From positions 62,001 through 94,290 of the IMG/VR virus record IMGVR_UViG_3300030118_002829: a stretch of DNA of 32,290 nucleotides; one strand, given 5' to 3'. Every line of letters starts with the position of its first letter. The first letter of the stretch is position 1. The notes beneath the pieces were generated by a model. It made no database searches. It was not told the DNA's origin and saw nothing but the letters and a program-made list of their open reading frames with translations. Shown here piece by piece: positions 1 to 25,117 of this stretch. The DNA comes from an uncultured virus (IMG/VR IMGVR_UViG_3300030118_002829). Its lineage: Duplodnaviria > Heunggongvirae > Uroviricota > Caudoviricetes. Position numbers and translations under genes: made by a program.

Positions 1-148
1 CTTTTCCTTCTCCACCACTACCTGTTCTTTTGTAGAATAAGACCTTCTCATCTCCTAAGTCTGCAAGTAAAATTGGCCTACCATCTATCTCCATTAGCCA
101 CTCATAAGAAATATCTTGTTTAAGAATAACCATCCATTTGGGTAGCAT
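1..148 (-). CDS. hypothetical protein, partial (runs off window start): MLPKWMVILKQDISYEWLMEIDGRPILLADLGDEKVLFYKRTGSGGEGK...
   Basis: Manually translated open frame from ATG at 148 (minus), preceded by AGGTGAG Shine-Dalgarno; no stop before position 1. Confidence 0.7.
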   Translation of the reverse strand, partial: MLPKWMVILKQDISYEWLMEIDGRPILLADLGDEKVLFYKRTGSGGEGK

Positions 149-243
149 ATTTCTCACCTAACTTTTTCAAAAAATGACCTGTAATTTGTGTGGGACTAGC
201 AAAAATTTTTTGGGGCTTATCGTCTATTTCCAGCCAAATGCCT

Positions 244-540
244 TTAATCCTCCAATAACATTTTACTTATATCGTCTAACGATAACAGTTCGCTTATTCT
301 TTTATGAGCAACAGTTTGGCGTTTAGCGACAGGCACATTCAATCCGTTATCGCTACTCGATTTAGTAGCAAAATCATCTAAGGAAGTCTGTGTAGTCTTT
401 TTCCTTGTTGCATCTAACAATTCTTTTAGCAATCCTTCAGCGTCCTTTAACGCTTTATTGGCAATATCCGTTTTTACCTTTGCTTCGTGCATTAATTTAT
501 TGATTTCCCTTACGGCCTCAAAAACATCATCATCATCCAT
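244..540 (-). CDS. hypothetical coiled-coil protein
   Basis: 98 aa ORF, helical charged composition, same strand as neighbouring gene. Confidence 0.7.
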   Translation of the reverse strand: MDDDDVFEAVREINKLMHEAKVKTDIANKALKDAEGLLKELLDATRKKTTQTSLDDFATKSSSDNGLNVPVAKRQTVAHKRISELLSLDDISKMLLED

Positions 541-690
541 TGGAAACGCCTACTGATGCAAGCCTACTGTCGTTTAACTAATGAAGATATTGTTTATTCA
601 TTAAATTTTAATGGTGTAAGGCTTATCGTTTAACGACTATCAAATAAAAAATTTTTTCACAAAGCCATATGGTTGTAGGCTTTGCAAACA

Positions 691-721
691 ACCTTGATAG
701 GTAATCCGCAAACCTACTATC
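691..721 (+). promoter_or_regulatory. module promoter signature ACCTT...CTACTATC immediately before ATG (leaderless)
   Basis: Same bipartite motif with 31-33 nt spacing at the head of all six A/B modules. Confidence 0.65.
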
Positions 722-922
722 ATGAATGCAGAGGATATAGCAAGCCACATCGTTAATCTTACTATGAGATTAGATAACCAAAAAGAATTGAAAAAGGCAT
801 GGCAGGTTATTAGTAAAGCACTATTATATCTAAGTGCTAAAGATGACTTCTTTACAAGAGAACAAGAGTCATTAGAAATAATAGGTAGAATGAAAGAAGA
901 ACGATTGGAGGATTTAGTATGA
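722..922 (+). CDS. hypothetical protein
   Basis: 66 aa ORF directly after module promoter; ATGA overlap with next gene. Confidence 0.75.
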   Translation: MNAEDIASHIVNLTMRLDNQKELKKAWQVISKALLYLSAKDDFFTREQESLEIIGRMKEERLEDLV

Positions 923-1170
923 GTGATGAAGTAGCGGAATGGTGTGGTTATAATTCTACATGGGATATGCTCACATATCATCTTGACAAAGAAGAATTAA
1001 TGAACCTTCTTCAAGAGTTTGTCTATGAAGATAAGCAAGGTTGGATAGCAGAAATCATTGAAGATTTAGCAAAACAACATTATGAATGGGTAGACCATGA
1101 AAGGATTAAAGCAGACCATGAAGATAGAATGTATCAAGAATACAAAGACAAGATAAGAGGGATAGAATGA
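919..1170 (+). CDS. hypothetical acidic protein
   Basis: 83 aa ORF, GGAGG RBS, translationally coupled. Confidence 0.75.
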   Translation: MSDEVAEWCGYNSTWDMLTYHLDKEELMNLLQEFVYEDKQGWIAEIIEDLAKQHYEWVDHERIKADHEDRMYQEYKDKIRGIE

Positions 1171-1274
1171 CACAAGCAGGGATAATTAGATGTTTCAACT
1201 GCAAACGCTCAATAGGATATTGTGTATCCTTTGGGTGTGAACCAATAGAGGATAATCCTCGCCCTTCGGGGTAG
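1167..1274 (+). CDS. 35 aa Cys-rich microprotein (MTQAGIIRCFNCKRSIGYCVSFGCEPIEDNPRPSG)
   Basis: ATGA overlap, GAGG upstream, CxxC...Cx4C. Confidence 0.45.
   Translation: MTQAGIIRCFNCKRSIGYCVSFGCEPIEDNPRPSG
1261..1272 (+). terminator. GCCC-TTCG-GGGT hairpin ending module A1
   Basis: cUUCGg tetraloop stem just inside the right arm. Confidence 0.5.
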
Positions 1275-1352
1275 TTTACAAAGCACTACCATATGGTGAG
1301 GCAACTTTGAGATGACACGAACCTCATAACGAATTAGTGTTTACTACTATTG

Positions 1353-1478
1353 ATGGTAACTACTAGTTATTCGGATGATTGTGCATGTTGTGGAAAAGAA
1401 ATACACATTGACATGGATGGAGGATACCTTTGGGAAGGTTCTTTCGCTTGTGAGGAATGTATTGAGGAGATGGATTAA
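1353..1478 (+). CDS. 41 aa zinc-finger microprotein (MVTTSYSDDCACCGKEIHIDMDGGYLWEGSFACEECIEEMD)
   Basis: ATG directly after module promoter; CxxC...CxxC. Confidence 0.7.
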   Translation: MVTTSYSDDCACCGKEIHIDMDGGYLWEGSFACEECIEEMD

Positions 1479-1549
1479 TGGAATTAGTAATTAGGATAGA
1501 AACGGAAGAATGGATATACGAGGAGTGGATTGAAGATGAAAGCAAGTGA
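1478..1549 (+). CDS. 23 aa acidic peptide (MELVIRIETEEWIYEEWIEDESK)
   Basis: TAATG overlap, GAGGAG RBS. Confidence 0.45.
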   Translation: MELVIRIETEEWIYEEWIEDESK

Positions 1550-1667
1550 ATTAATGACAATGACATATAAACAAGTAGAAGAAATTGAACAACAATTATG
1601 GAAAGATTGGGAAATCGCAAGTAATGTTTTGAAAGTATTGAAGGCAATGAATAAGGAGGAAGAATGA
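1536..1667 (+). CDS. 43 aa helical microprotein (MKASELMTMTYKQVEEIEQQLWKDWEIASNVLKVLKAMNKEEE)
   Basis: GAGGAG upstream, ATGA overlap with next ORF. Confidence 0.6.
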   Translation: MKASELMTMTYKQVEEIEQQLWKDWEIASNVLKVLKAMNKEEE

Positions 1668-1840
1668 TGTTTCAAAGAAGACATATGCAAGCCGTAGCAG
1701 ACGAGGTAATGACATGGGACAAAACCATGAGCAAGAAACAGATAGTGGATAACCTCTGTTCGCTTTTTGCTTATTACAACCCAAATTTCAAGCCTGACAG
1801 ATTTAGAAAAGCCTGTTCAGCGTTTGAAGGGGAGTTGTGA
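1664..1840 (+). CDS. 58 aa protein with NPNFxxxRFxxAC motif
   Basis: MMFQRRHMQAVADEVMTWDKTMSKKQIVDNLCSLFAYYNPNFKPDRFRKACSAFEGEL; AGGAGG RBS. Confidence 0.7.
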   Translation: MMFQRRHMQAVADEVMTWDKTMSKKQIVDNLCSLFAYYNPNFKPDRFRKACSAFEGEL

Positions 1841-1847
1841 GGCGGTT

Positions 1848-1869
1848 GGAGTGGGGTAACGCCCACTCC
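1848..1869 (+). terminator. GGAGTGGG/CCCACTCC hairpin ending module B1
   Basis: Perfect 8 bp GC-rich stem 7 nt after the stop. Confidence 0.55.
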
Positions 1870-1921
1870 TTCTGCTATTCCTCAAAGTTAGCGAAGGAGT
1901 TCTAGCATTACCATATGGTTT

Positions 1922-2065
1922 TGAAATATGTGGGTATTCCTGAAGAAAAAAGACAGGATTTCTTCGGAAGCGTTAATTAATCTCAAATCTCTAGCAAGTT
2001 AGACTACTGATTTCAGATTATAATTTCCCATAACCCTTTGGTGTCCTTTCCGAACACATTTTTCA
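1922..2065 (-). other. module C1, non-coding, bounded by TGAAATATGTG / CACATTTTTCA
   Basis: Arms 1922-1932 and 2055-2065 (10/11); interior resembles C2 in opposite orientation. Confidence 0.7.
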
Positions 2066-2113
2066 CTACCATATGGTATTGGGCTTTGTATCAATACCCC
2101 AAATCGAATTTCA

Positions 2114-2202
2114 GTCCCCACCATCACATCTGCTAAGATGCTGAGACTCAGAACGGCCTATTCTGATTAAGGGGGTTTCCCTTATCTCTAGATGGTGGGG
2201 AC
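2114..2202 (-). terminator. branched stem-loop at the 3' end of module A2
   Basis: Perfect 12 bp stem GTCCCCACCATC/GATGGTGGGGAC enclosing sub-hairpins. Confidence 0.5.
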
Positions 2203-2233
2203 CTACTGCCGATACCTTTCATTCAATCAACCC

Positions 2234-2431
2234 CTACTCATGTTGGAGTATCTTGAAATCTTGGAGGGCTATCTGTAAGTCGGCAATGCACTTTTCTAGT
2301 TCATCACCACTCACACGAAGTTTCTTGATAATCAATTCATTGTTTCGATTATGACCAACTTCTATGACGAAGCGTTGTTCTTGGTTCGCTATATGTTCTT
2401 CAATTGTATTCTTTTTGTTAAACCATTTCAT
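2234..2431 (-). CDS. hypothetical protein
   Basis: 65 aa ORF with AGGAGTGA RBS on the minus strand. Confidence 0.75.
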   Translation of the reverse strand: MKWFNKKNTIEEHIANQEQRFVIEVGHNRNNELIIKKLRVSGDELEKCIADLQIALQDFKILQHE

Positions 2432-2790
2432 CTATATCACTCCTTGAATTTAAGCCGAAGTATTGCCTCCTTGACTAGTATCGGAGGCTGAGAACTTATG
2501 TGTCTACAAGTCGGAGGGATTTTCTCAGCACATTACTTGGTCTGTTCCTGTTGCATCCTTAACCTCCTAGGAAGAATAAGGCAAGATGAGCCGTTCATGG
2601 TGATAAACAAATATCGCACTTAGGTTTCGATTCTCTACTTCTATTACCAACCAAATCAACTGCCTACGAGGACAGTATATTTTCGATTGGTCGTGATAGT
2701 AGGATTTGGCTAATGTATTTCAAGGTAAGAATACAAAGCCCTTACCATATGGTTGTTTAACTTTGAGGCTGAACAACCATGCTAAAAGTC

Positions 2791-2827
2791 GCTCCCCCCG
2801 CTTAAGAGGCTGAAGGTGGGGGGGAGC
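2791..2827 (-). terminator. GCTCCCCCC/GGGGGGAGC hairpin ending module B2
   Basis: 9 bp GC stem downstream of the minus-strand stop at 2856. Confidence 0.5.
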
Positions 2828-2855
2828 ATTTTGTTGAAAACCTTCCGTTGGGACA

Positions 2856-3107
2856 TTAGCGTGTAAACCTGTTAAATGTCTTCAATTCTGCTTTGGTGCG
2901 TTTTGCAAGTTCTCCTCTCCAACTTTGTAGGTTAGCGAGAACATATGGGATTTGTTGTTCCAATCCCTCATCACCATACATGTGATATGCTTCTAATGAC
3001 GCATTAGCATAGGTCTTTGCATAATCAGCAAAACCCCCTGTGGCATTGTCAATCACTATTTGCATTAATTCAAAAATTCGTTCTACTTGTTCATCTGTAT
3101 ATTCCAT
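2856..3107 (-). CDS. hypothetical protein (MEYTDEQ..., 83 aa)
   Basis: Start reassigned from 3134 to ATG 3107: AGGAGG RBS and TGATG overlap with upstream ORF. Confidence 0.75.
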   Translation of the reverse strand: MEYTDEQVERIFELMQIVIDNATGGFADYAKTYANASLEAYHMYGDEGLEQQIPYVLANLQSWRGELAKRTKAELKTFNRFTR

Positions 3108-3220
3108 CAATATTCCTCCTTGTTCTGCAACCAATCTTTACCTTTGCAATCTGCAATGGCTTTCAATAGGTCAATTTCTTCTCTTGTTAGGTATTTGTTC
3201 CGTAACTGTGTCCTGTTCAT
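3107..3220 (-). CDS. 37 aa microprotein (MNRTQLRNKYLTREEIDLLKAIADCKGKDWLQNKEEY)
   Basis: ATG directly after the module promoter signature; coupled to next gene. Confidence 0.65.
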   Translation of the reverse strand: MNRTQLRNKYLTREEIDLLKAIADCKGKDWLQNKEEY

Positions 3221-3285
3221 CAATAGATAGCACTACAATTTTGACATAAGGTATCTTTCCTCAAAGTTCGATACCATATGGTTCG

Positions 3286-3437
3286 ATGAAAAAACTTTAG
3301 TCGAGGGTATATGAAGGTGCGACTTGAAAATAATCTCAGATGAGTAGCGATATGCTAGAATATTGACATTGTTTTCTGTTTTCCGCATATTCTCAAGTAA
3401 ATTGACATTTTTCACTAAATTATCCTACATTTTTCAT
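3286..3437 (+). other. module C2, non-coding, bounded by ATGAAAAA / TTTTTCAT
   Basis: Arms 3286-3293 and 3430-3437; length similar to C1; internal similarity to the reverse complement of C1. Confidence 0.7.
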
Positions 3438-3535
3438 TACCATATGGTTCGGCTTTGCACAGAACCCTACAAATAGATTCAACATTCTCTACTATTGCAA
3501 GTCAAGAACGATTGAATCAGATTGATTAACAGGAG

Positions 3536-4075
3536 ATGAAAAGAATGGCAGACTATACAATGGATGATGACAAGTGGAACTCACGGGTTGCTTTGATTGA
3601 ATCCCACATCAAGAATAACGATGTTGGAGACATGGAAGCACCTTTGATGTGGAACCTAAAACAAGGAACAGAAAAACCCGAATACCGTAAGCGATATTGG
3701 AACAACATTACCAATATGTTCGCAACTGTGGATAACTCACCGATTATTATCGGCAAGAGAAGTTCACTCCCCCAAGCAGTGCAGGACTCTATGGAGATAC
3801 TATGTGCGGAATATGCAACTGGCCAAAGTGCGCTTTTTGCTAGCCACCCAATGTATGCTCAAGTGCTTCGTGCAAGAGGTATCGCTGGATACACTCCTTA
3901 CGAAAATGCGGAGTCCTATGCAAAGGCTCAAGTTGCAAACTTGAAAACAAGGCTTACAGGATACTACAAGAACTACACCGACAAAAACGCTGAATTGATT
4001 CAGTGGGATGGAACACTAAGTAAGGATGGTTCACCAAACCTTACTGTTCCAGCAGTTGAGGAGGCTGAAGTCTGA
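3536..4075 (+). CDS. hypothetical protein (179 aa)
   Basis: Long ORF, AGGAG upstream (start could be ATG 3545). Confidence 0.85.
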   Translation: MKRMADYTMDDDKWNSRVALIESHIKNNDVGDMEAPLMWNLKQGTEKPEYRKRYWNNITNMFATVDNSPIIIGKRSSLPQAVQDSMEILCAEYATGQSALFASHPMYAQVLRARGIAGYTPYENAESYAKAQVANLKTRLTGYYKNYTDKNAELIQWDGTLSKDGSPNLTVPAVEEAEV

Positions 4076-4096
4076 GCCTAATCGTTCTTGGCTTGC

Positions 4097-4134
4097 ACCT
4101 CACAGGATTTGCCTTCGGGCATTTCTTGTGAGGT
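4097..4134 (+). terminator. long hairpin with cUUCGg loop ending module A3
   Basis: ACCTCACAGGA..GCC-TTCG-GGC..TCTTGTGAGGT. Confidence 0.6.
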
Positions 4135-4167
4135 ATGTTTACAAAGCAACATACCATATGGTAACAA

Positions 4168-4599
4168 AACTTTGAGGATTATGTTACCTTATGAAAAATG
4201 ATTAAACCTTACTATCATGATTGATTGGGAAGACATGGTTAAAGAATACAAGAAGCAATATGATGATGAAGACGGAATTAATGAATTTATTGATAGTTTA
4301 CTACCTGTATATTATGGAGATATATATTCAACCTATCATGAAGAAATTGGGACACCTATGAACATTGAAATTGAGGAGCATCACCAAGGTATGCAAATTT
4401 GGCAAATAATGAATATAGATATTTTTAATTCATTTTTTGAGAGTTTTCACTCTGCATGGACTCCTTTTGATGAGGAGGAGTGAATTTGAGATACTGGGGA
4501 GTGGTTTTGTATGTTTACCACAGGCAAGGGAGCCTCGGCAGATATGCCAAAAAGCCGAAAACTAAACATTCACCCTTCGGGGTCATTCTTCTCAAAGTT
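4168..4599 (+). other. module B3, bounded by AACTTTGAG / CTCAAAGTT
   Basis: Arms 4168-4176 and 4591-4599 (9/9); promoter signature 4186-4216; cUUCGg hairpin 4572-4583. Confidence 0.8.
4217..4483 (+). CDS. very acidic hypothetical protein
   Basis: 88 aa ORF directly after the module promoter signature. Confidence 0.8.
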   Translation: MIDWEDMVKEYKKQYDDEDGINEFIDSLLPVYYGDIYSTYHEEIGTPMNIEIEEHHQGMQIWQIMNIDIFNSFFESFHSAWTPFDEEE

Positions 4600-5008
4600 A
4601 TGACCATATGGTTGGTAGAGACTTAAACTTGAAATTATTTTTCTTAAAGTTAAGTTTTTGATGCTCGACTTGCAAATATGCCAGTTTAAATAGTTTCCAA
4701 GAATCCCAATACTGAGAATGATTCAATATTCATTCTTAGATTATCTCGCATGGAGATTGACTTCTTCAATGCGACTAATACCTAACCTTAGTATATCAAC
4801 GCAGTATCACAAGGTAGTCAATTTTACCACCCATTTTTGTATGGATTTATTTGGGTTACATTCAATTGACATATACAGTATAATATAATGTATAGGTATT
4901 AGATAATTAATACATAATATTTGATTTGATAATATGGATTTTTCTTTATTTTGCAATTATTGTAGTGAACTACAAAATCAAAAATGGGGAAAAACCGAGG
5001 GACGCAAA

Positions 5009-5140
5009 AGAGAAAGTAAGTATTATTGTAATATTGTAAATATTGTAATAATATAATATATATTATACTCTCTTTCTTTTACTTACTTTCTTTCTCTATG
5101 GGAAGTGTTACAATATCTACAATATTACAATATTCTACAA
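5009..5140. repeat. AT-rich iteron-like repeats; candidate replication origin
   Basis: TATTGTAA at 5024, 5032, 5041; inverted (T/C)TACAATA at 5108, 5117, 5125; (AT)n core between them. Confidence 0.55.
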
Positions 5141-5285
5141 AATGGCTCGCAGTGTCATCTTTGCATTTTTTACAAAGACTGCATAATGCGAAAATATACT
5201 ACAATAATGAAAGAAGCAGGAAAATTCCAGATTTTTTTCATATGAGTTTTTTAATGTGAAACTACTAGCATAAACAGGTGATGAT

Positions 5286-5546
5286 ATGGATACACAAAAG
5301 AAAATAAAAGACACAATCAAAATGATAGAGAAGTTACTACTATCAAAGAATAAGCAATACGGAGATTCCGCAATGAATCCCCTTGGCATATTTGCTAATG
5401 GTTCAGCAGAGGAATTGATTCGTGTTAGAATAGATGATAAATTAAATAGATTACTTCAAGGAGATGAATCTATAGAAAGTGATACAGATGTAATATTAGA
5501 CCTAATCGGTTATCTTGTATTACTTCTAATATCAATGGAAGAATAA
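5286..5546 (+). CDS. DUF1599 / nucleotide modification-associated domain (Nmad1-like) protein
   Basis: KNxxYGDS...IRVRIDDKLNRL...DLIGY pattern; AGGTGA RBS. Confidence 0.7.
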   Translation: MDTQKKIKDTIKMIEKLLLSKNKQYGDSAMNPLGIFANGSAEELIRVRIDDKLNRLLQGDESIESDTDVILDLIGYLVLLLISMEE

Positions 5547-5566
5547 GATTTGAATGAGTCCCACCA

Positions 5567-5756
5567 CTATCTATAGAGCGAGTAACCAAAAGGTATGAGT
5601 TAAAAGGGTTAAACTGGATAACGGTCTGAGTAATGAAAGCGAAGTAGATGGGTTCAAAACTATTGTTTGAGAATAGATAATCTTGAATGCACTCAAAACT
5701 ATTGGGCTGGCCTAATAGACCTCTGCATGAAGGGCGGGGCATCGTTCTATAGATGG
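5567..5756 (+). ncRNA. candidate structured RNA
   Basis: 15 bp closing stem (5567-5581/5742-5756, two G-U pairs), internal hairpins, duplicated TCAAAACTATTG. Confidence 0.4.
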
Positions 5757-7520: not shown

Positions 7521-7530
7521 AATCATACAT

Positions 7531-7602
7531 GGGCGTATGGTGTAACGGATAGCATGTTGGCCTTCTAAGCCGAAGATAGGGGTTCGATTCCTCTTACGCC
7601 CG
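7531..7602 (+). tRNA. tRNA-Arg (anticodon TCT), CCA not encoded
   Basis: Acceptor GGGCGTA/TACGCCC, anticodon arm TTGGC-CTTCTAA-GCCGA, T-loop GGTTCGATTCC. Confidence 0.95.
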
Positions 7603-7625
7603 TATGATAAAACGGAGATGATATA

Positions 7626-14166: not shown

Positions 14167-14200
14167 AGAAAAGAAACGGTCATCCTACGGGGTGACAAAA

Positions 14201-15067
14201 ATGAAATGCAAAGAATGTAATGGTAAAATCGTAGATATTGACGGAGAATTATCTTGTGAAGTATGTGGTGTTGTTCATAGTATATCTTTAGAGCCACCAA
14301 GACCTCAAGCCATCAAAAATCAAAACTCTCATGAGTTTCTTAATCATGAAAATGATAATGCCTATGGTTTAGGTAGTATCATTGGTCCCGAAAATTTCAA
14401 GGGAGCATCAAGATTGAGAAGATTGGCTAGTAGACAAAGTGGAGAGGATAGAAAAATGAAAAAAGCCATGTTTTTCATAAATATCGTCAAATCTGAATTT
14501 GGATTACAAAACTCTGCCAAATTAGATATGAGGAATTATTATTCTACTTTATCATCTAAGGGAATTTTCACTTCTAAAATGTCCTATGAAGAAAGGGCGG
14601 CTTCTATTGGTTATATTACAATCAAGGAATATGGTTATGGCTATACTCTCAAAGAAATGTGTAAAACATTAGATGTTCCTATGAAAAGAGTAGGAAGAAA
14701 TGCTAGATTGTATGCTAGACATTTAGGTAAGTCTCATGTTTTTGCTATGGCCAATCCCGAAGGGATGATTGAAAAGTATTGTTCAAGGATTACCGAGAAT
14801 AGAAAGTTTATGAATGATATTCTCAATATGTATCACTATCTAGATAATATAGTTAGTAGCCATCCTTCAACCCATTACTTAGCAGGTATTACTTATTTTG
14901 TCGAAGGACTAAAGATGCAAAAGGAACATACGAGAAAACAAATCGCTGAAGCATTTGAAACAAATCCTAGAAGAATAACGGAAGTCATTAAAAGAATAAA
15001 GAATATGCTAAATATCAAAGATACTTTTGGTTTAACAGTTGAAGATATATTGGAGGGAGTTAGATGA
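14201..15067 (+). CDS. tfb: transcription initiation factor IIB (TFB)-like protein
   Basis: N-terminal CKEC-x13-CEVCG Zn ribbon, GLGSII linker, two helical cyclin-like repeats (TLKEMC, TRKQIAEAF). Confidence 0.8.
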   Translation: MKCKECNGKIVDIDGELSCEVCGVVHSISLEPPRPQAIKNQNSHEFLNHENDNAYGLGSIIGPENFKGASRLRRLASRQSGEDRKMKKAMFFINIVKSEFGLQNSAKLDMRNYYSTLSSKGIFTSKMSYEERAASIGYITIKEYGYGYTLKEMCKTLDVPMKRVGRNARLYARHLGKSHVFAMANPEGMIEKYCSRITENRKFMNDILNMYHYLDNIVSSHPSTHYLAGITYFVEGLKMQKEHTRKQIAEAFETNPRRITEVIKRIKNMLNIKDTFGLTVEDILEGVR

Positions 15068-16561: not shown

Positions 16562-17125
16562 ATGAAAAGAAAAGTAATGATTATAGGAACAGGTGGAATT
16601 GGAAGTTTTCTAATCCCTCTTTTAGATAAGACGGGATTGTATAAGATTACGGCACATGACCCCGATATTGTAGAAAAGAAGAATATACCTTATCAGAATT
16701 TTGAATTAAACGAGATTGATGATAAGAAAGTATTTGCTATGAAGAATAGATACAAGTCAGTGGCTAAGGCTGAACCTTTTTTGGTTCTAACAGAAAAACA
16801 AATTCAAGGTTATGACTTAGTTATCTGTTGTGCGGATAATTTAGATGTAAGAAGGCTACTTTATAGGTCATCAGTTAAATGGTTAGACTTGAGAGCGCAA
16901 GGTCGTAATGGTGCTTACATTAGTTATCTAACGCCTAAGAACATGTATGATGTTGTGCTTGCAGGACCCGATGGAAGTTTTTCATGTCAAGGAGATAGTT
17001 GGAAAGGCAAGAAAGAAGGTTTGCACTTTACTCATGTAGCAATAGCAGGTATGGCGGCTGAATGGATGCAAAGATGGTTTGTTGATGAGAATGATGTTTC
17101 AGATTACAAAGTGGTGAATATTTAA
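16562..17125 (+). CDS. ThiF/MoeB/E1-like Ubl-activating enzyme
   Basis: IIGTGGIGS, DPDIVEKKN, YDLVICCADNLDVRR, WLDLR. Confidence 0.9.
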   Translation: MKRKVMIIGTGGIGSFLIPLLDKTGLYKITAHDPDIVEKKNIPYQNFELNEIDDKKVFAMKNRYKSVAKAEPFLVLTEKQIQGYDLVICCADNLDVRRLLYRSSVKWLDLRAQGRNGAYISYLTPKNMYDVVLAGPDGSFSCQGDSWKGKKEGLHFTHVAIAGMAAEWMQRWFVDENDVSDYKVVNI

Positions 17126-17661
17126 TGGATACTAATCAATTAGTAGAGGATTACCTAAAGAATACTCCCCATTATACAAATTCAGAAGATATTGTTGTCT
17201 TGACTGATTGGAAAGAAAGAATAGAATGGTCCTTTGACCATCCAAAGAAAGCATCGGGATTACTGTCAATCTTCCAAGAGAAAAGAGGTGTTTTCCTTGA
17301 AACTATTTGGCAGATGAGTATGACTGCTTTTGATAAACCAAGAGAAGTCCAAGTGGTGATAGACAATAACGATAAGTTGTTTATTTCTTTTGGGACATTT
17401 TCATTTGTTGAATTTATGGAAGACCCTGTTGGAATGAAGTTGCCGATTAAATGTTGGATACATACTCATCCTTTCGGTTCAGCGTATTTCAGTGGAACAG
17501 ATATGAAAACAATCAACACATGGAAACCTATCATGATTAGTGCTATCGTTTTAGGAGATGGAGAACATCAAACTTGGATGAACACTTCTTCCAATAAAGC
17601 GACACATTATACTTATGCCAAGAAAAGGCTAGTAGAATTAAATGGAGGAGAAGAAGAATGA
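17125..17661 (+). CDS. JAB/JAMM (MPN+) metalloprotease
   Basis: E (REVQV) ... HTHPFGSAYFSGTD = HxH-x7-S-x2-D; TAATG coupling to the E1 gene. Confidence 0.9.
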   Translation: MDTNQLVEDYLKNTPHYTNSEDIVVLTDWKERIEWSFDHPKKASGLLSIFQEKRGVFLETIWQMSMTAFDKPREVQVVIDNNDKLFISFGTFSFVEFMEDPVGMKLPIKCWIHTHPFGSAYFSGTDMKTINTWKPIMISAIVLGDGEHQTWMNTSSNKATHYTYAKKRLVELNGGEEE

Positions 17662-20684: not shown

Positions 20685-20963
20685 ATGAATCAAAGAGAAG
20701 AAGCAATGATGGAAGAAATCCTTAGATTAGAAAGAGAATTAAGTAAGTATAAGTGGACCGAAGAAAATCCTTGGTGGCTTTTGAATTACAAATTTAAAGT
20801 AGAATTCTTTTGGGATGAAAATGAAAAGGGAGTAAATGCTTTTAATCCGAAAGTTCGCATTCATACTCATAATCCTAAAAAGAAACAACAAATAGATAAG
20901 ACATTACCATTGTTTACTTTAGCAATGAGATATGCTCAGAAACTATTAGAGGAGGAGGAATAG
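20685..20963 (+). CDS. hypothetical protein (MNQREE...)
   Basis: ATG 20685 after GGAGG (ORF track start 20661). Confidence 0.7.
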   Translation: MNQREEAMMEEILRLERELSKYKWTEENPWWLLNYKFKVEFFWDENEKGVNAFNPKVRIHTHNPKKKQQIDKTLPLFTLAMRYAQKLLEEEE

Positions 20964-21271
20964 TGGCTGATGAAGAATTGTTAGGTCGTATCCCTAGAGA
21001 TGCCAAGAATGAATTCAAAGTAACTAGAGGTAGATATTGGAATACCGACTATGTAGATATTAGATTACATACAAATGGTAATCACACAAAGAAAGGCATT
21101 CGACTTAACTTAGATGAACTACTGGTTCTAAAACAGATATTAGAGAAAATACAATTAGGAGATGAAGAAGATGGAAAAATTGAACAGGGAACAGAGATTA
21201 AACCCGATGGACAAATTAACGAAGAAAGAGATACTAAGCAAGGCAGTTCGCTATTTGCAAATCGTGGATAG
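20963..21271 (+). CDS. PC4/YdbC-like ssDNA-binding protein
   Basis: YVDIRL...TKKGIRLNLDEL. Confidence 0.75.
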   Translation: MADEELLGRIPRDAKNEFKVTRGRYWNTDYVDIRLHTNGNHTKKGIRLNLDELLVLKQILEKIQLGDEEDGKIEQGTEIKPDGQINEERDTKQGSSLFANRG

Positions 21272-24364: not shown

Positions 24365-24735
24365 TGTGGGAATCTAACATGGAATACTACACTGATGAAG
24401 ATATGAAGCGCAGATGGTCAGAGAAACATGGTAGAATAACAACTATCACTTACATGGTCTATGGTGATTTAGGAAAAAGAACCAACCTTTCAATTAATTA
24501 TGCTATTCGTGAGACTATATCGAGCAAGAAGTTTGCTCAAGTATTAGAAGAAGTAGATTATGAAATGGCAGAATTGTATGGTCTTTACCAAGGGACATGT
24601 ATCCAATGGGTATTTCCCGATAAATTAGAAGAATTAAATGAGATATTAGGATTGATTGAAAGTGGCTTAGACCATTTTAGAATCAAACATGAATGTATAG
24701 GAGCGACAGTAGATGTTTACGCAAGGACAACTTGA
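24295..24735 (+). CDS. hypothetical protein (true start probably downstream, e.g. ATG 24379)
   Basis: ORF in operon; start uncertain. Confidence 0.7.
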   Translation: MELAFNIKNTPWLPTGIEPKEKIVWESNMEYYTDEDMKRRWSEKHGRITTITYMVYGDLGKRTNLSINYAIRETISSKKFAQVLEEVDYEMAELYGLYQGTCIQWVFPDKLEELNEILGLIESGLDHFRIKHECIGATVDVYARTT

Positions 24736-25117
24736 AGGAGTAATTTATTCATTAGCATATCCCGAAATTGAAATCACAAAAGATGATAGACAATCAATAG
24801 GATATAGGATAAGATTGAGAGTCAATTTTAGAGCAAAGAATAATTTATTTCTTCTTAAATTACAAAGAACCCTAGAGGACAAGGGAATACAGTCCTATTA
24901 CAAAGCAAAGGAGAAAGAAGGTAGGCCCTATCCTTTGCTAAGATTGACGAATGTAGATAATCTGATTCAGTTTTTCAGATTAATAGATTCAGATGAGCCT
25001 ACATCAAATGATAGATTCAATTCCTTTGAAGAAGTTTTGACGCTTGTTTCTAATAAGCATCACTTGAAACAAAAAGGTTTTGAGCGCATATTAGAAATAA
25101 AGGGGTTATTGACTTGA
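24713..25117 (+). CDS. single-motif LAGLIDADG-fold protein, probably nuclease-inactive
   Basis: QLEGVIYSLA motif position, GYRIRLRVNF strand, KHHLKQKGFERILEIK tail. Confidence 0.65.
   Translation: MFTQGQLEGVIYSLAYPEIEITKDDRQSIGYRIRLRVNFRAKNNLFLLKLQRTLEDKGIQSYYKAKEKEGRPYPLLRLTNVDNLIQFFRLIDSDEPTSNDRFNSFEEVLTLVSNKHHLKQKGFERILEIKGLLT

Follow-up and report, generated by a model that had tools for sequence, protein, structure and literature searches.

As excerpted accounts describe them, the promoter-early stem-loops (PeSLs) of T4-type phages combine a promoter with a stem-loop, flank small genes in plastic regions of the genome, and are associated both with gene exchange and with mini-circles, which are a feature of these elements (Arbiol et al. 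2010, PMC2839356; see also Comeau et al. 2014, PMC4122927). A comparable motif has been described in part in the haloarchaeal myovirus HGTV-1, where a TATA-like element and an inverted repeat precede most of the open reading frames (ORFs) of the left arm, an arrangement that was likened to PeSLs and connected with genome shuffling (PMC3950731). Here we describe an array of small-gene modules, separated by nine copies of the palindrome CCATATGG, in an uncultured virus (IMG/VR record IMGVR_UViG_3300030118_002829; 94,290 bp, CheckV completeness 100%). The stretch that we analysed, referred to below as the window, comprises bases 62,001–94,290 of this record (32,290 nucleotides), and positions are numbered from its first letter unless they are given as genome positions in kb. 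A first-pass annotation of the window had proposed an integron- or shufflon-like system in which three orthogonal junction types let an archaeal virus exchange or flip gene cassettes. We arrive at a different overall explanation, to which we give somewhat more credence than not: the array would be an archaeal-virus analogue of the T4-type PeSL cassettes, in which a boundary signal doubles as the shuffling point.

The palindromes are confined to one locus

Nine CCATATGG palindromes are present in the window where the first-pass annotation had placed them (Table 1), compared with an expectation of 0.44, and none of 100 shuffled sequences reached nine. The annotation had also allowed that the word might prove common genome-wide; this is not so, as the whole 94,290-bp record contains CCATATGG at these nine positions only. 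CCATATGG is the most over-represented palindromic 8-mer of the genome, and ACCATATGGT, which occurs in 8 copies, is the only palindromic 10-mer with three or more. The nine palindromes divide 4 kb into eight modules, which we name, after the arm classes of the annotation, A1, B1, C1, A2, B2, C2, A3 and B3.

The array occupies 62.6–66.6 kb of the genome, between a block of minus-strand genes and a block of plus-strand genes. Because the leftward genes (7.8–62.5 kb) end at 62.5 kb and the rightward genes begin at 66.6 kb, the array lies at the point of divergence. As part of our overall explanation we regard it, with a little more confidence than doubt, as a cassette locus at the point where the structural block, which runs leftward, and the replication block, which runs rightward, part.

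Hairpins stand on the palindrome at both ends of the A and B modules

A feature absent from the first-pass annotation is that each arm of an A or B module forms a local hairpin that stands on the palindrome and carries CTTTG in its loop. The stem begins with the GG of the palindrome or ends with its CC, as in GGTTGT-aggctttgcaa-ACAACC (671–693), and neighbouring A and B modules are therefore joined as hairpin, ATAT, hairpin, which yields the invariant ACCATATGGT. In a set of 652 half-sites drawn from the window and 41 loci (42 sources in all, of which the locus L177 belongs to the same virus), a T follows the GG in 90%, and CTTTG lies within 30 nt in 436. A perfect GG-anchored stem of at least 5 bp is found at 230 of the 652 half-sites and in 52 of 3260 shuffles, and CTTTG falls inside the loop in 195 of 196 cases. 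The stems themselves differ from module to module. In one cassette family of 27 homologous modules, 21 of the 5' ends are stemmed, with 18 distinct stem sequences (16 of 540 shuffles are stemmed), and orthologous modules show paired changes within the stem, for example GGTTGTTT/AAACAACC versus GGTTGATT/AATCAACC. Stem mismatches of the G-T and A-C kinds number 4 versus 4 at 5' ends and 6 versus 2 at 3' ends; a bias of G-T over A-C, and with it an RNA-specific signal, is not seen, although so few mismatches do not decide between RNA and DNA hairpins.

Between these hairpins the modules have a recognisable polarity. Among 198 modules, oriented by their longest ORF, hairpins with a GC stem and TTCG occur at 21% of 3' ends in the sense direction and at 0% in antisense or at 5' ends, whereas a TATA-like box (CCTTA, CCCTA, CCTCA or CCTTG) follows the hairpin at 142 of 198 5' ends compared with 59 of 198 3' ends. 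Many 3' ends have a GC hairpin followed by a run of T. In the A and B modules of the window the TATA-like box lies about 27–32 nt inside the palindrome, and the distance from the palindrome to the first ATG is 57 nt in A1, 64 in B1, 61 in B2, 63 in B3, 96 in A3 and 321 in A2. The annotation had likewise described the A and B modules as apparently self-contained units of promoter, small genes and hairpin. On balance we incline to the view that the A and B modules are transcription units of archaeal type that stand on their own, each with its promoter and terminator inside mirror-image end hairpins. Since promoter and terminator would both lie within the end hairpins, the joints are probably outside the units' own transcripts.

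The fixed distance of the palindrome upstream of the TATA-like box, together with the fact that the virus encodes its own TFB homologue (Table 1), would also suit a purely regulatory or insulating array, in which the palindromes and hairpins are operator, roadblock or promoter-upstream sites that separate the units and co-regulate them, and in which rearrangements end at joints since exchanges elsewhere break units and are selected out. The same joint is found, however, at terminator ends and at the gene-less C modules, which are promoter-free. We consider a purely regulatory array possible, though on the unlikely side, and return to it below where further evidence bears on it.

Related viruses differ by whole modules, with end-points at the palindromes

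Scans of viral contigs returned at least 132 and at least 186 matching stretches; at least 51 sequence groups have three or more palindromes, and at least 40 related viral contigs carry such arrays. Among the 152 modules of 22 oriented arrays we recognised 18 recurrent cassette families, the order and orientation of which vary. Measured from a conserved array boundary, modules of the A3 family point either way; the A2 family (D) keeps its orientation in L210 and L154 but is flipped in L213, and the B3 family (G) is flipped in L199. Two arrays with shared flanks, L163 and L166, differ in that one module has moved (L163 7097–7798 corresponds to L166 4632–5332), its ends lying no more than 1 nt from palindromes, and L216 differs from L193 by exactly one extra module.

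The closest non-identical relative among the matches listed, G036 (87,650 bp; clamp loader 96% identical), has an array of 11 palindromes that is colinear with that of the window save for three differences. G036 has one additional module of 384 bp following A1 and another of 83 bp between A3 and B3, and its A3 is inverted in place (window 3439–4172 is the reverse complement of L440 4978–5711, at 85.8% identity). Similarity across this inversion starts from the first base inside each palindrome, and there is none outside. The inversion of A3 in G036, the transposition between L163 and L166 and the insertion or deletion between L216 and L193 support the annotation's proposal that modules are units of exchange that can flip in place. 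A fixed arrangement among relatives, which the annotation had named as the contrary outcome, is refuted by this comparison of cassette content, order and orientation, in which the end-points fall at the palindromes.

Near-identical genomes present a different picture. In a second assembly (L177), seven of the eight modules are 100% identical to those of the window and the eighth is 99.8% identical, in the same order, and near-identical genomes from other samples have order and orientation unchanged. Contigs of another study (X6) bridge the joints 1911/2069/2745 and 3274/3440/4154 in the arrangement of the window, and X9 has loose ends at 3434 and 3466, consistent with a relative that has only the joint in common. 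The same order in near-identical genomes, taken with the rearranged relatives, indicates that flipping and exchange are real but slow on the scale of strain divergence, and we lean towards shuffling as a slow, evolutionary process and not a fast switch. A stable arrangement in near-identical genomes is equally what a purely regulatory array would produce. End-points that lie within 1 nt of a palindrome in several independent events, an inversion included, are nevertheless sharper than selection alone would be expected to leave them.

Of 41 sources, 22 have the boundary form, in which CAAAG directly precedes CCATATGG, and in 21 of these it stands at one end of the array, as first or last palindrome. 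To the left of the boundary a small minus-strand ORF of 70–100 amino acids (aa) is usual, and BLASTP ties the copy in the window only to L213. Lone palindromes outside arrays, found at four sites in relatives, had no arms and no hairpins, and we rejected them as empty sites on those grounds. Among 185,579 species genomes there were 45 stretches with the joint pattern, the record titles of which list no Poseidoniales genome, and each stretch was a single site except for two overlapping loci on one contig. Judged by these genomes, the joint motif belongs to the virus and not to the host. The sole array in the species genomes, L362/L363, lies on a 14.7-kb contig with five joints (NZ_NZTP01000027.1) from a marine Altibacter metagenome-assembled genome; this is probably a viral, most likely magrovirus, contig that was placed in a bacterial bin.

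Module ends match, and the A-B-C period is not general

The order A-B-C-A-B-C-A-B, as the first-pass annotation claimed, is that of the window. The class A arm GCTTTGYA lies at module ends in six of its seven matches in the window (2.05 matches expected; 679+, 1277-, 2083+, 2732-, 3452+ and 4140-), and the class B arm AACTTTGAG in all six of its matches (0.45 expected; 1303+, 1881-, 2759+, 3260-, 4168+ and 4591-). Class C held up in part. Its right arm TGAAAAATGT is exact (2056, 3427), but its left arm has one mismatch at 1922 and two at 3287; with up to two mismatches this A/T-rich word has 99 matches in the window against 95 expected, which is the level of chance, and the class C arms have no palindrome-anchored hairpin. 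Modules A2 and B2 do point leftward, as annotated, with minus-strand ORFs, a TATA-like box at their right ends and GC-rich hairpins at their left ends (Table 1).

From this order the annotation had derived three orthogonal junctions (C/A, A/B and B/C) that would fix the order of modules and permit like-for-like exchange. The periodicity of the window is the argument for such a system and is unusual by our own arithmetic, in that 2 of the 560 orders of three A, three B and two C modules are strictly periodic. The modules of G036, however, read A, B', B, C, A, B, C, A-inverted, C', B, which breaks the cycle, and the cycle is absent from other arrays, where the arms may all be of a single flavour (L148, L197) or may be mixed within a module (L154); across arrays the arms form a continuum of xxCTTTGyy. 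Class C, moreover, is not statistically distinct, and gene-less modules are not tied to orientation switches: by orientation calls that are noisy, direct gene-gene joints in relatives comprise 11 convergent and 14 divergent ones among 90 (25 of 90), and of the spacer-flanked pairs 4 switch and 6 do not (4 of 10). A strict period of three with three orthogonal junction types is thus not a rule, and we hold this model to be very improbable. The notion that C modules serve as buffers at orientation switches, which fits the window and G036 but not the relatives, was likewise rejected.

What does hold across arrays is a likeness between the two ends of a module. Identical CTTTG flanks at both ends of one module were found in 31 of 177 modules, compared with 15.6 ± 2.9 in within-genome shuffles, of which 0 of 5000 reached 31; with the window left out the figures are 27 of 171 compared with 13.9 (1 of 5000 shuffles). 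Matches of flanks across a palindrome show a small excess (8 of 155 against 3.4 expected). The CTTTG flanks are in addition far more alike within than between genomes (15.6 versus 4.2 expected matches in within-genome and global shuffles, respectively). Matching module ends and likeness within genomes together imply that arms travel with the module and drift together within a genome. Likeness within a genome would fit co-evolution with a genome-specific reader, as a purely regulatory array might have, whereas the agreement of a module's two ends beyond the genome average argues against that explanation.

In some relatives (arrays L043, L205, L193 and L216) there are long runs of gene-less modules of 75–170 bp. 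The arms in these runs differ from CTTTG, for example with loops that contain ATGCTAACGC or, in L043, AATTTGT. The palindrome is constant while the flavour of the arms varies by lineage.

The genome encodes no recognisable site-specific recombinase

In a six-frame search of the complete genome at E ≤ 1 we found no tyrosine recombinase (PF00589; the control was found in 14 of 14 genomes), no serine recombinase (PF00239; controls found) and no Y1 HUH transposase (PF01797; controls found), and Pfam scans of 114 different ORFs (E ≤ 0.001 or E ≤ 0.01) returned none of these families. The annotation had recognised no site-specific recombinase in the window, and this observation can now be extended to the whole genome. 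The integron- or shufflon-like site-specific system that it envisaged is not supported, given the lack of an enzyme, the modules' own promoters and the stable order in near-identical genomes.

The likeness to integrons consists in arrays of small cassettes with boundary sites that, as in attC, are conserved in structure more than in sequence. The locus differs in that it has no IntI-type integrase (PF00589), in that its cassettes have their own promoters and occur in both orientations, and in that each joint has two hairpins around a symmetric core, whereas integrons have one attC per cassette. The shufflon of R64, with its recombinase Rci, resembles the array in that segments invert in place between short repeats. 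The array, however, lacks a tyrosine recombinase; what inverts here is a whole transcription unit and not an alternative 3' end of a single gene; and no population heterogeneity was seen in the contigs of four runs. Hairpin elements of the IS200/IS605 or REP/RAYT kind have a Y1 HUH transposase that is lacking here (PF01797). Since the defining enzyme was found in none of these cases, the locus does not belong with integrons, shufflons or HUH elements; the array is not an integron or a shufflon.

The resemblance to PeSLs goes further. PeSLs, in the excerpted accounts, also consist of a short promoter and stem-loop motif beside small genes without known function in a plastic region; insertions, deletions and replacements among relatives stop at the motif, and no dedicated recombinase is needed. 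A composite motif, small genes in a variable region and differences that end at the motif are all found in the present array. The differences lie in symmetry and in the promoter, which is of the archaeal TATA type here and a sigma-70 early promoter in PeSLs. In the array an invariant 10-bp palindrome is flanked by two hairpins, so that the joint reads identically on either strand; its units occur in, and flip between, both orientations; the hairpins enclose promoter and terminator alike; each unit has matching ends; and all copies are in one locus. Because it belongs to an archaeal virus with TATA-like boxes and no sigma-70 promoter, the array is an analogue of PeSLs and not a member of that class. 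HGTV-1, as excerpted, is alike in being an archaeal tailed virus with a motif made up of a TATA-like box and an inverted repeat. The excerpted account of HGTV-1 mentions no palindromic core, twin hairpins or inversions. The primary paper on the HGTV-1 motif is reportedly that of Sencilo et al. 2013.

A search of the literature yielded no description of this architecture, a text search for the palindrome being swamped by unrelated matches, and the main texts of two magrovirus papers (PMC5434244, PMC11706807) contain none of the terms palindrom, hairpin, promoter or 'inverted repeat'.

How modules may be exchanged

In our preferred explanation the joint would act as a boundary signal at the level of DNA, and most likely a dimeric protein would dock there to insulate or co-regulate the units. 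The stems of the end hairpins vary and compensate, and their loops carry CTTTG. As the core equals its own reverse complement, any two copies are direct and inverted repeats of one another at once; with such a symmetric core, whole units could be deleted, inserted, moved or flipped without damage. Exchange would proceed by break-and-rejoin or short-homology recombination at the core and would be carried out by the virus's general recombination and repair enzymes. General tools of this kind are encoded, namely a PD-(D/E)XK nuclease, an ERCC4-HhH nuclease, ligases and a PC4-like single-strand binder. The outcome of exchange is seen from relatives, and the mechanism is what we infer.

Several points weigh against this account. 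The binder at the joint is a proposal, and recombination there may be tolerated and not targeted; 10 bp of identity is short for homologous recombination. Hairpins stand at promoter and terminator ends alike and so are not simply PeSL-type terminators, and hairpins are not known to be required for archaeal termination. The relatives were retrieved by patterns of CCATATGG and CTTTG, and motif frequencies are for that reason partly ascertained, although the stem statistics are free of this effect; orientation by longest ORF is wrong for some modules, for example B1, which blurs the 5' and 3' statistics. In four metagenome runs, finally, no circles, inversions or excisions were found, a weak test made on assembled contigs only, and these of low depth, which speaks for the covered parts alone.

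The rule that the locus shows is a simple one: self-contained units that run from promoter to terminator are exchanged at one 10-bp palindrome in either orientation. The PeSL idea, known from T4-type phages, is thereby extended to viruses of archaea and takes on greater symmetry there. ACCATATGGT with CTTTG hairpins provides a marker for the variable gene pool of these viruses in metagenomes, and for the joint a concrete candidate reader protein can be named.

A conserved LAGLIDADG-fold protein is a candidate reader of the palindrome

The candidate is a single-domain protein of the LAGLIDADG fold that is encoded in the rightward block (Table 1). Its ORF gives a weak LAGLIDADG_3 match in a Pfam scan, and at least 222 proteins, typically about 131 aa long, belong to the same family. 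Foldseek relates the structural model (predicted local distance difference test, pLDDT, 91; predicted template modelling score, pTM, 0.83) to I-LtrI, I-OnuI, I-TnaI (5gkk) and I-Vdi141I (3e54) with E ~1e-8 and a template modelling (TM) score of 0.8, I-TnaI and I-Vdi141I being single-domain proteins, and the family profile matches I-PnoMI with E 1e-19. In the alignment, the place of the catalytic Glu (GEG motif) is taken by L, G or V in five viral copies and by 'l' in the profile. The canonical active site is thus gone, which makes canonical cleavage unlikely; to go by its sequence, the protein is apparently inactive as a canonical nuclease. Among the invariant residues are G30, Y31 and R40. 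The model places Y31 and R40 in a predicted beta-strand, with E67 and R71 in a segment between two other strands. A symmetric dimer is predicted through residues 2–14, with an interface score (ipSAE) of 0.75 compared with 0.00 for the best of three controls, 100% contact agreement between runs and a partner pLDDT of at least 88. In calibration this mark was reached by 20 of 30 proteins solved as pairs and by 1 of 23 solved as single chains, and the score may reflect likeness to solved LAGLIDADG dimers.

Of 15 array-bearing records with a completeness of 90% or more, 14 carry the gene, the one without it being 130 kb long and having no more than four palindromes, which are scattered; overall the count is 28 of 35. 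By its distribution this is a conserved core gene of these viruses, neither sporadic nor mobile. Co-occurrence of the gene with the array does not discriminate, since all sufficiently complete relatives that were reached have both. The protein shares with the single-motif homodimeric LAGLIDADG homing endonucleases the fold, the profile match and the predicted dimer through the N-terminal helix, and differs from them in that the catalytic acid is replaced and in that its gene is a conserved core gene and not a mobile one. Homologues in these viruses are listed, in the excerpted part of one study, as possible repair enzymes (PMC11706807). The gene beside it was tried as a mini-TFB and rejected, as it gave no signal in Pfam, in PDB sequences or against the TFB homologue of the window. 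LAGLIDADG homodimers read palindromic DNA, and LAGLIDADG enzymes cleave across the central four base pairs. A dimeric DNA-binding fold that is conserved and yet inactive would need a conserved palindromic target, and ACCATATGGT is the sole repeated palindrome; the homodimer could be what reads it.

The same protein figures in an explanation of another kind, namely dedicated site-specific exchange, in which an unrecognised enzyme of virus or host cuts and rejoins DNA at the ATAT and the hairpin arms are a structural recognition signal like that of attC. With a symmetric core a single reaction would insert, excise and invert, and the LAGLIDADG homodimer could be its recognition or nicking subunit. 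End-points inside the 8–10-bp core, hairpins that are conserved in structure and variable in sequence, and module ends that match as transposon ends do would all be expected of such a reaction, and the distribution of the single-domain protein, its fold and profile matches and its dimer model, which may rest on likeness to solved dimers, are consistent with it; the ATAT at the centre of the joint can also be set beside the four-bp central cleavage of LAGLIDADG enzymes. We nevertheless think dedicated exchange unlikely, because the six-frame search of the whole genome revealed no integrase, resolvase or Y1 transposase, L, G or V stands in place of the catalytic Glu, the second assembly and contigs of other studies show the identical arrangement, with no circles, inversions or excisions, and the 5 conserved bp per half-site are fewer than such proteins usually read.

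More speculative, and unlikely still, is that the ACCATATGGT joint is the docking site of a domesticated LAGLIDADG-fold homodimer that makes up, with the viral nucleases and ligases, a recombinase-free cassette-exchange machine. The covarying hairpins would then present the ends of each unit, and repeated flipping would account for the match between those ends. If true, this would be a new gene-cassette system built from a homing-endonuclease fold, in one of the surface ocean's most abundant virus groups.

Features of the individual modules

The features of the array and the two proteins referred to above are collected in Table 1.

Table 1 Palindromes and modules of the array, with two protein-coding genes of the window (window positions; hairpins, boxes and genes are given with the module to which they belong).
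Feature	Position	Strand	Description
Palindrome 1, array boundary	665..672	.	CAAAG directly abutting on the left
Module A1	673..1288	+	5' hairpin 671-693; TATA-like CCTTGATAGG 692-701
A1 genes	722-922, 919-1170, 1167-1274	+	66 aa; 83 aa; 35 aa, Cys-rich
A1 end	1262-1271, 1270-1290		CCCTTCGGGG hairpin; 3' hairpin
Palindrome 2, A1/B1 joint	1289..1296	.	
Module B1	1297..1910	+	5' hairpin 1297-1326; GC hairpin 1848-1869
B1 genes	1353-1478, 1536-1667, 1664-1840	+	41 aa, Cys-rich; 43 aa; 58 aa
Palindrome 3, B1/C1 joint	1911..1918	.	
Module C1	1919..2068	.	150 bp; no ORF ≥28 aa, no CTTTG arm, no anchored hairpin
Palindrome 4, C1/A2 joint	2069..2076	.	
Module A2	2077..2744	-	promoter-side hairpin 2724-2746; TATA-like ACCTTGAAATAC on minus strand
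A2 gene and end	2431-2234	-	65 aa; long hairpin 2114-2202; end hairpin 2075-2098
Palindrome 5, A2/B2 joint	2745..2752	.	
Module B2	2753..3273	-	promoter-side hairpin 3250-3275; genes 3220-3107 (37 aa), 3107-2856 (83 aa)
B2 end	2791-2827, 2751-2778	-	GC hairpin; end hairpin
Palindrome 6, B2/C2 joint	3274..3281	.	
Module C2	3282..3439	.	158 bp; gene-less; weak similarity to C1
Palindrome 7, C2/A3 joint	3440..3447	.	left end-point of G036 in-place inversion
Module A3	3448..4153	+	5' hairpin 3446-3466; gene 3536-4075 (179 aa)
A3 end	4098-4133, 4132-4155		UUCG-tipped hairpin; 3' hairpin
Palindrome 8, A3/B3 joint	4154..4161	.	right end-point of G036 in-place inversion
Module B3	4162..4603	+	5' hairpin 4160-4188; TATA-like CCTTATGAAA; gene 4217-4483 (88 aa)
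B3 end	4573-4582, 4581-4605		CCCTTCGGGG; 3' hairpin
Palindrome 9, last	4604..4611	.	AT-rich non-coding stretch adjoins
TFB homologue	14192-15067	+	N-terminal TFIIB zinc ribbon, Pfam E 2.9e-4, below cut-off
Candidate palindrome reader	24713..25117	+	134-aa single-domain LAGLIDADG-fold protein, canonical catalytic acid replaced

The eleven small ORFs of the array match no Pfam family. The 3' arm of B1, which contains CTCAAAGTT, is more complex than the arms of other modules. In A2 about 320 nt separate the promoter-side palindrome from the first ATG of the only convincing gene, and on the minus strand this stretch (2432–2744) has no ORF of at least 28 aa that starts with ATG and none of at least 40 aa with any common start. 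It lies within a 1.5-kb block that aligns to G036 at about 74% identity, and it may represent a long leader, a tiny gene or an RNA.

The 179-aa family of A3 is the commonest cassette family, with 27 modules in 18 of the 22 oriented arrays and often two per array. The A3 protein was considered as the missing enzyme and rejected: it has 45 database homologues, no Pfam family and no recognisable fold, and its confident model is helical (pLDDT 87), with nothing in Foldseek at E ≤ 0.001 and a best VIA Z of 6.6, to generic helical bundles.

Neither C1 nor C2 contains an ORF of at least 28 aa. The possibility that the C modules are small RNAs was rejected, as Rfam gave no match at E ≤ 1 over window 1–5600, the predicted folds were not notable (z-scores -1.6, -2.2, -0.6 and -0.5, the first two for C1), and C1 and C2 are only weakly alike. 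The RTTAA pentaloop does not occur in window 1–5400.

Genome setting and neighbouring genes

The genes of the window include a thermosome-type chaperonin, two RFC clamp-loader subunits and a sliding-clamp-like protein, together with a split family-B polymerase, ATP-dependent ligases and a class II ribonucleotide reductase; capsid, portal, terminase, tail-tube and prohead-protease genes lie outside the window in the same genome. Magroviruses are among the most abundant viruses of surface-ocean archaea, and their hosts are uncultured. We take the present gene set to be that of a magrovirus; this name, reportedly used by Philosof et al. 2017, denotes tailed viruses that infect marine group II (Poseidoniales) archaea. 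The claim that the window comes from an archaeal virus is borne out by its magrovirus-type gene content.

The TFB homologue, beyond its zinc ribbon, has an NCBIfam TFIIB match over residues 72–275 (E 1.3e-7, far below the model cut-off). Such a viral homologue could direct the host RNA polymerase to viral promoters, for example those of the cassettes.

To the right of the array, at the strand-switch point, window 4612–5285 is non-coding and AT-rich (28% G+C). It contains clustered TATTGTAA words (5024, 5032 and 5041) and inverted copies of them (5108–5133), which together form 25-nt arms that are 96% complementary. This stretch is a candidate replication origin.

The PC4-like single-stranded-DNA-binding protein is encoded in the replication block at 20963–21271 (+) and matches PF02229 at 29.2 bits, above the cut-off. 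A ThiF-like (E1-type) gene and a JAB-like gene lie side by side at 16562–17661 (+), the JAB match being below the Pfam cut-off; their proximity may suggest a ubiquitin-like modifier pair. Amid the early rightward genes there is, in addition, a gene for tRNA-Arg (TCT) at 7530–7603 (+).

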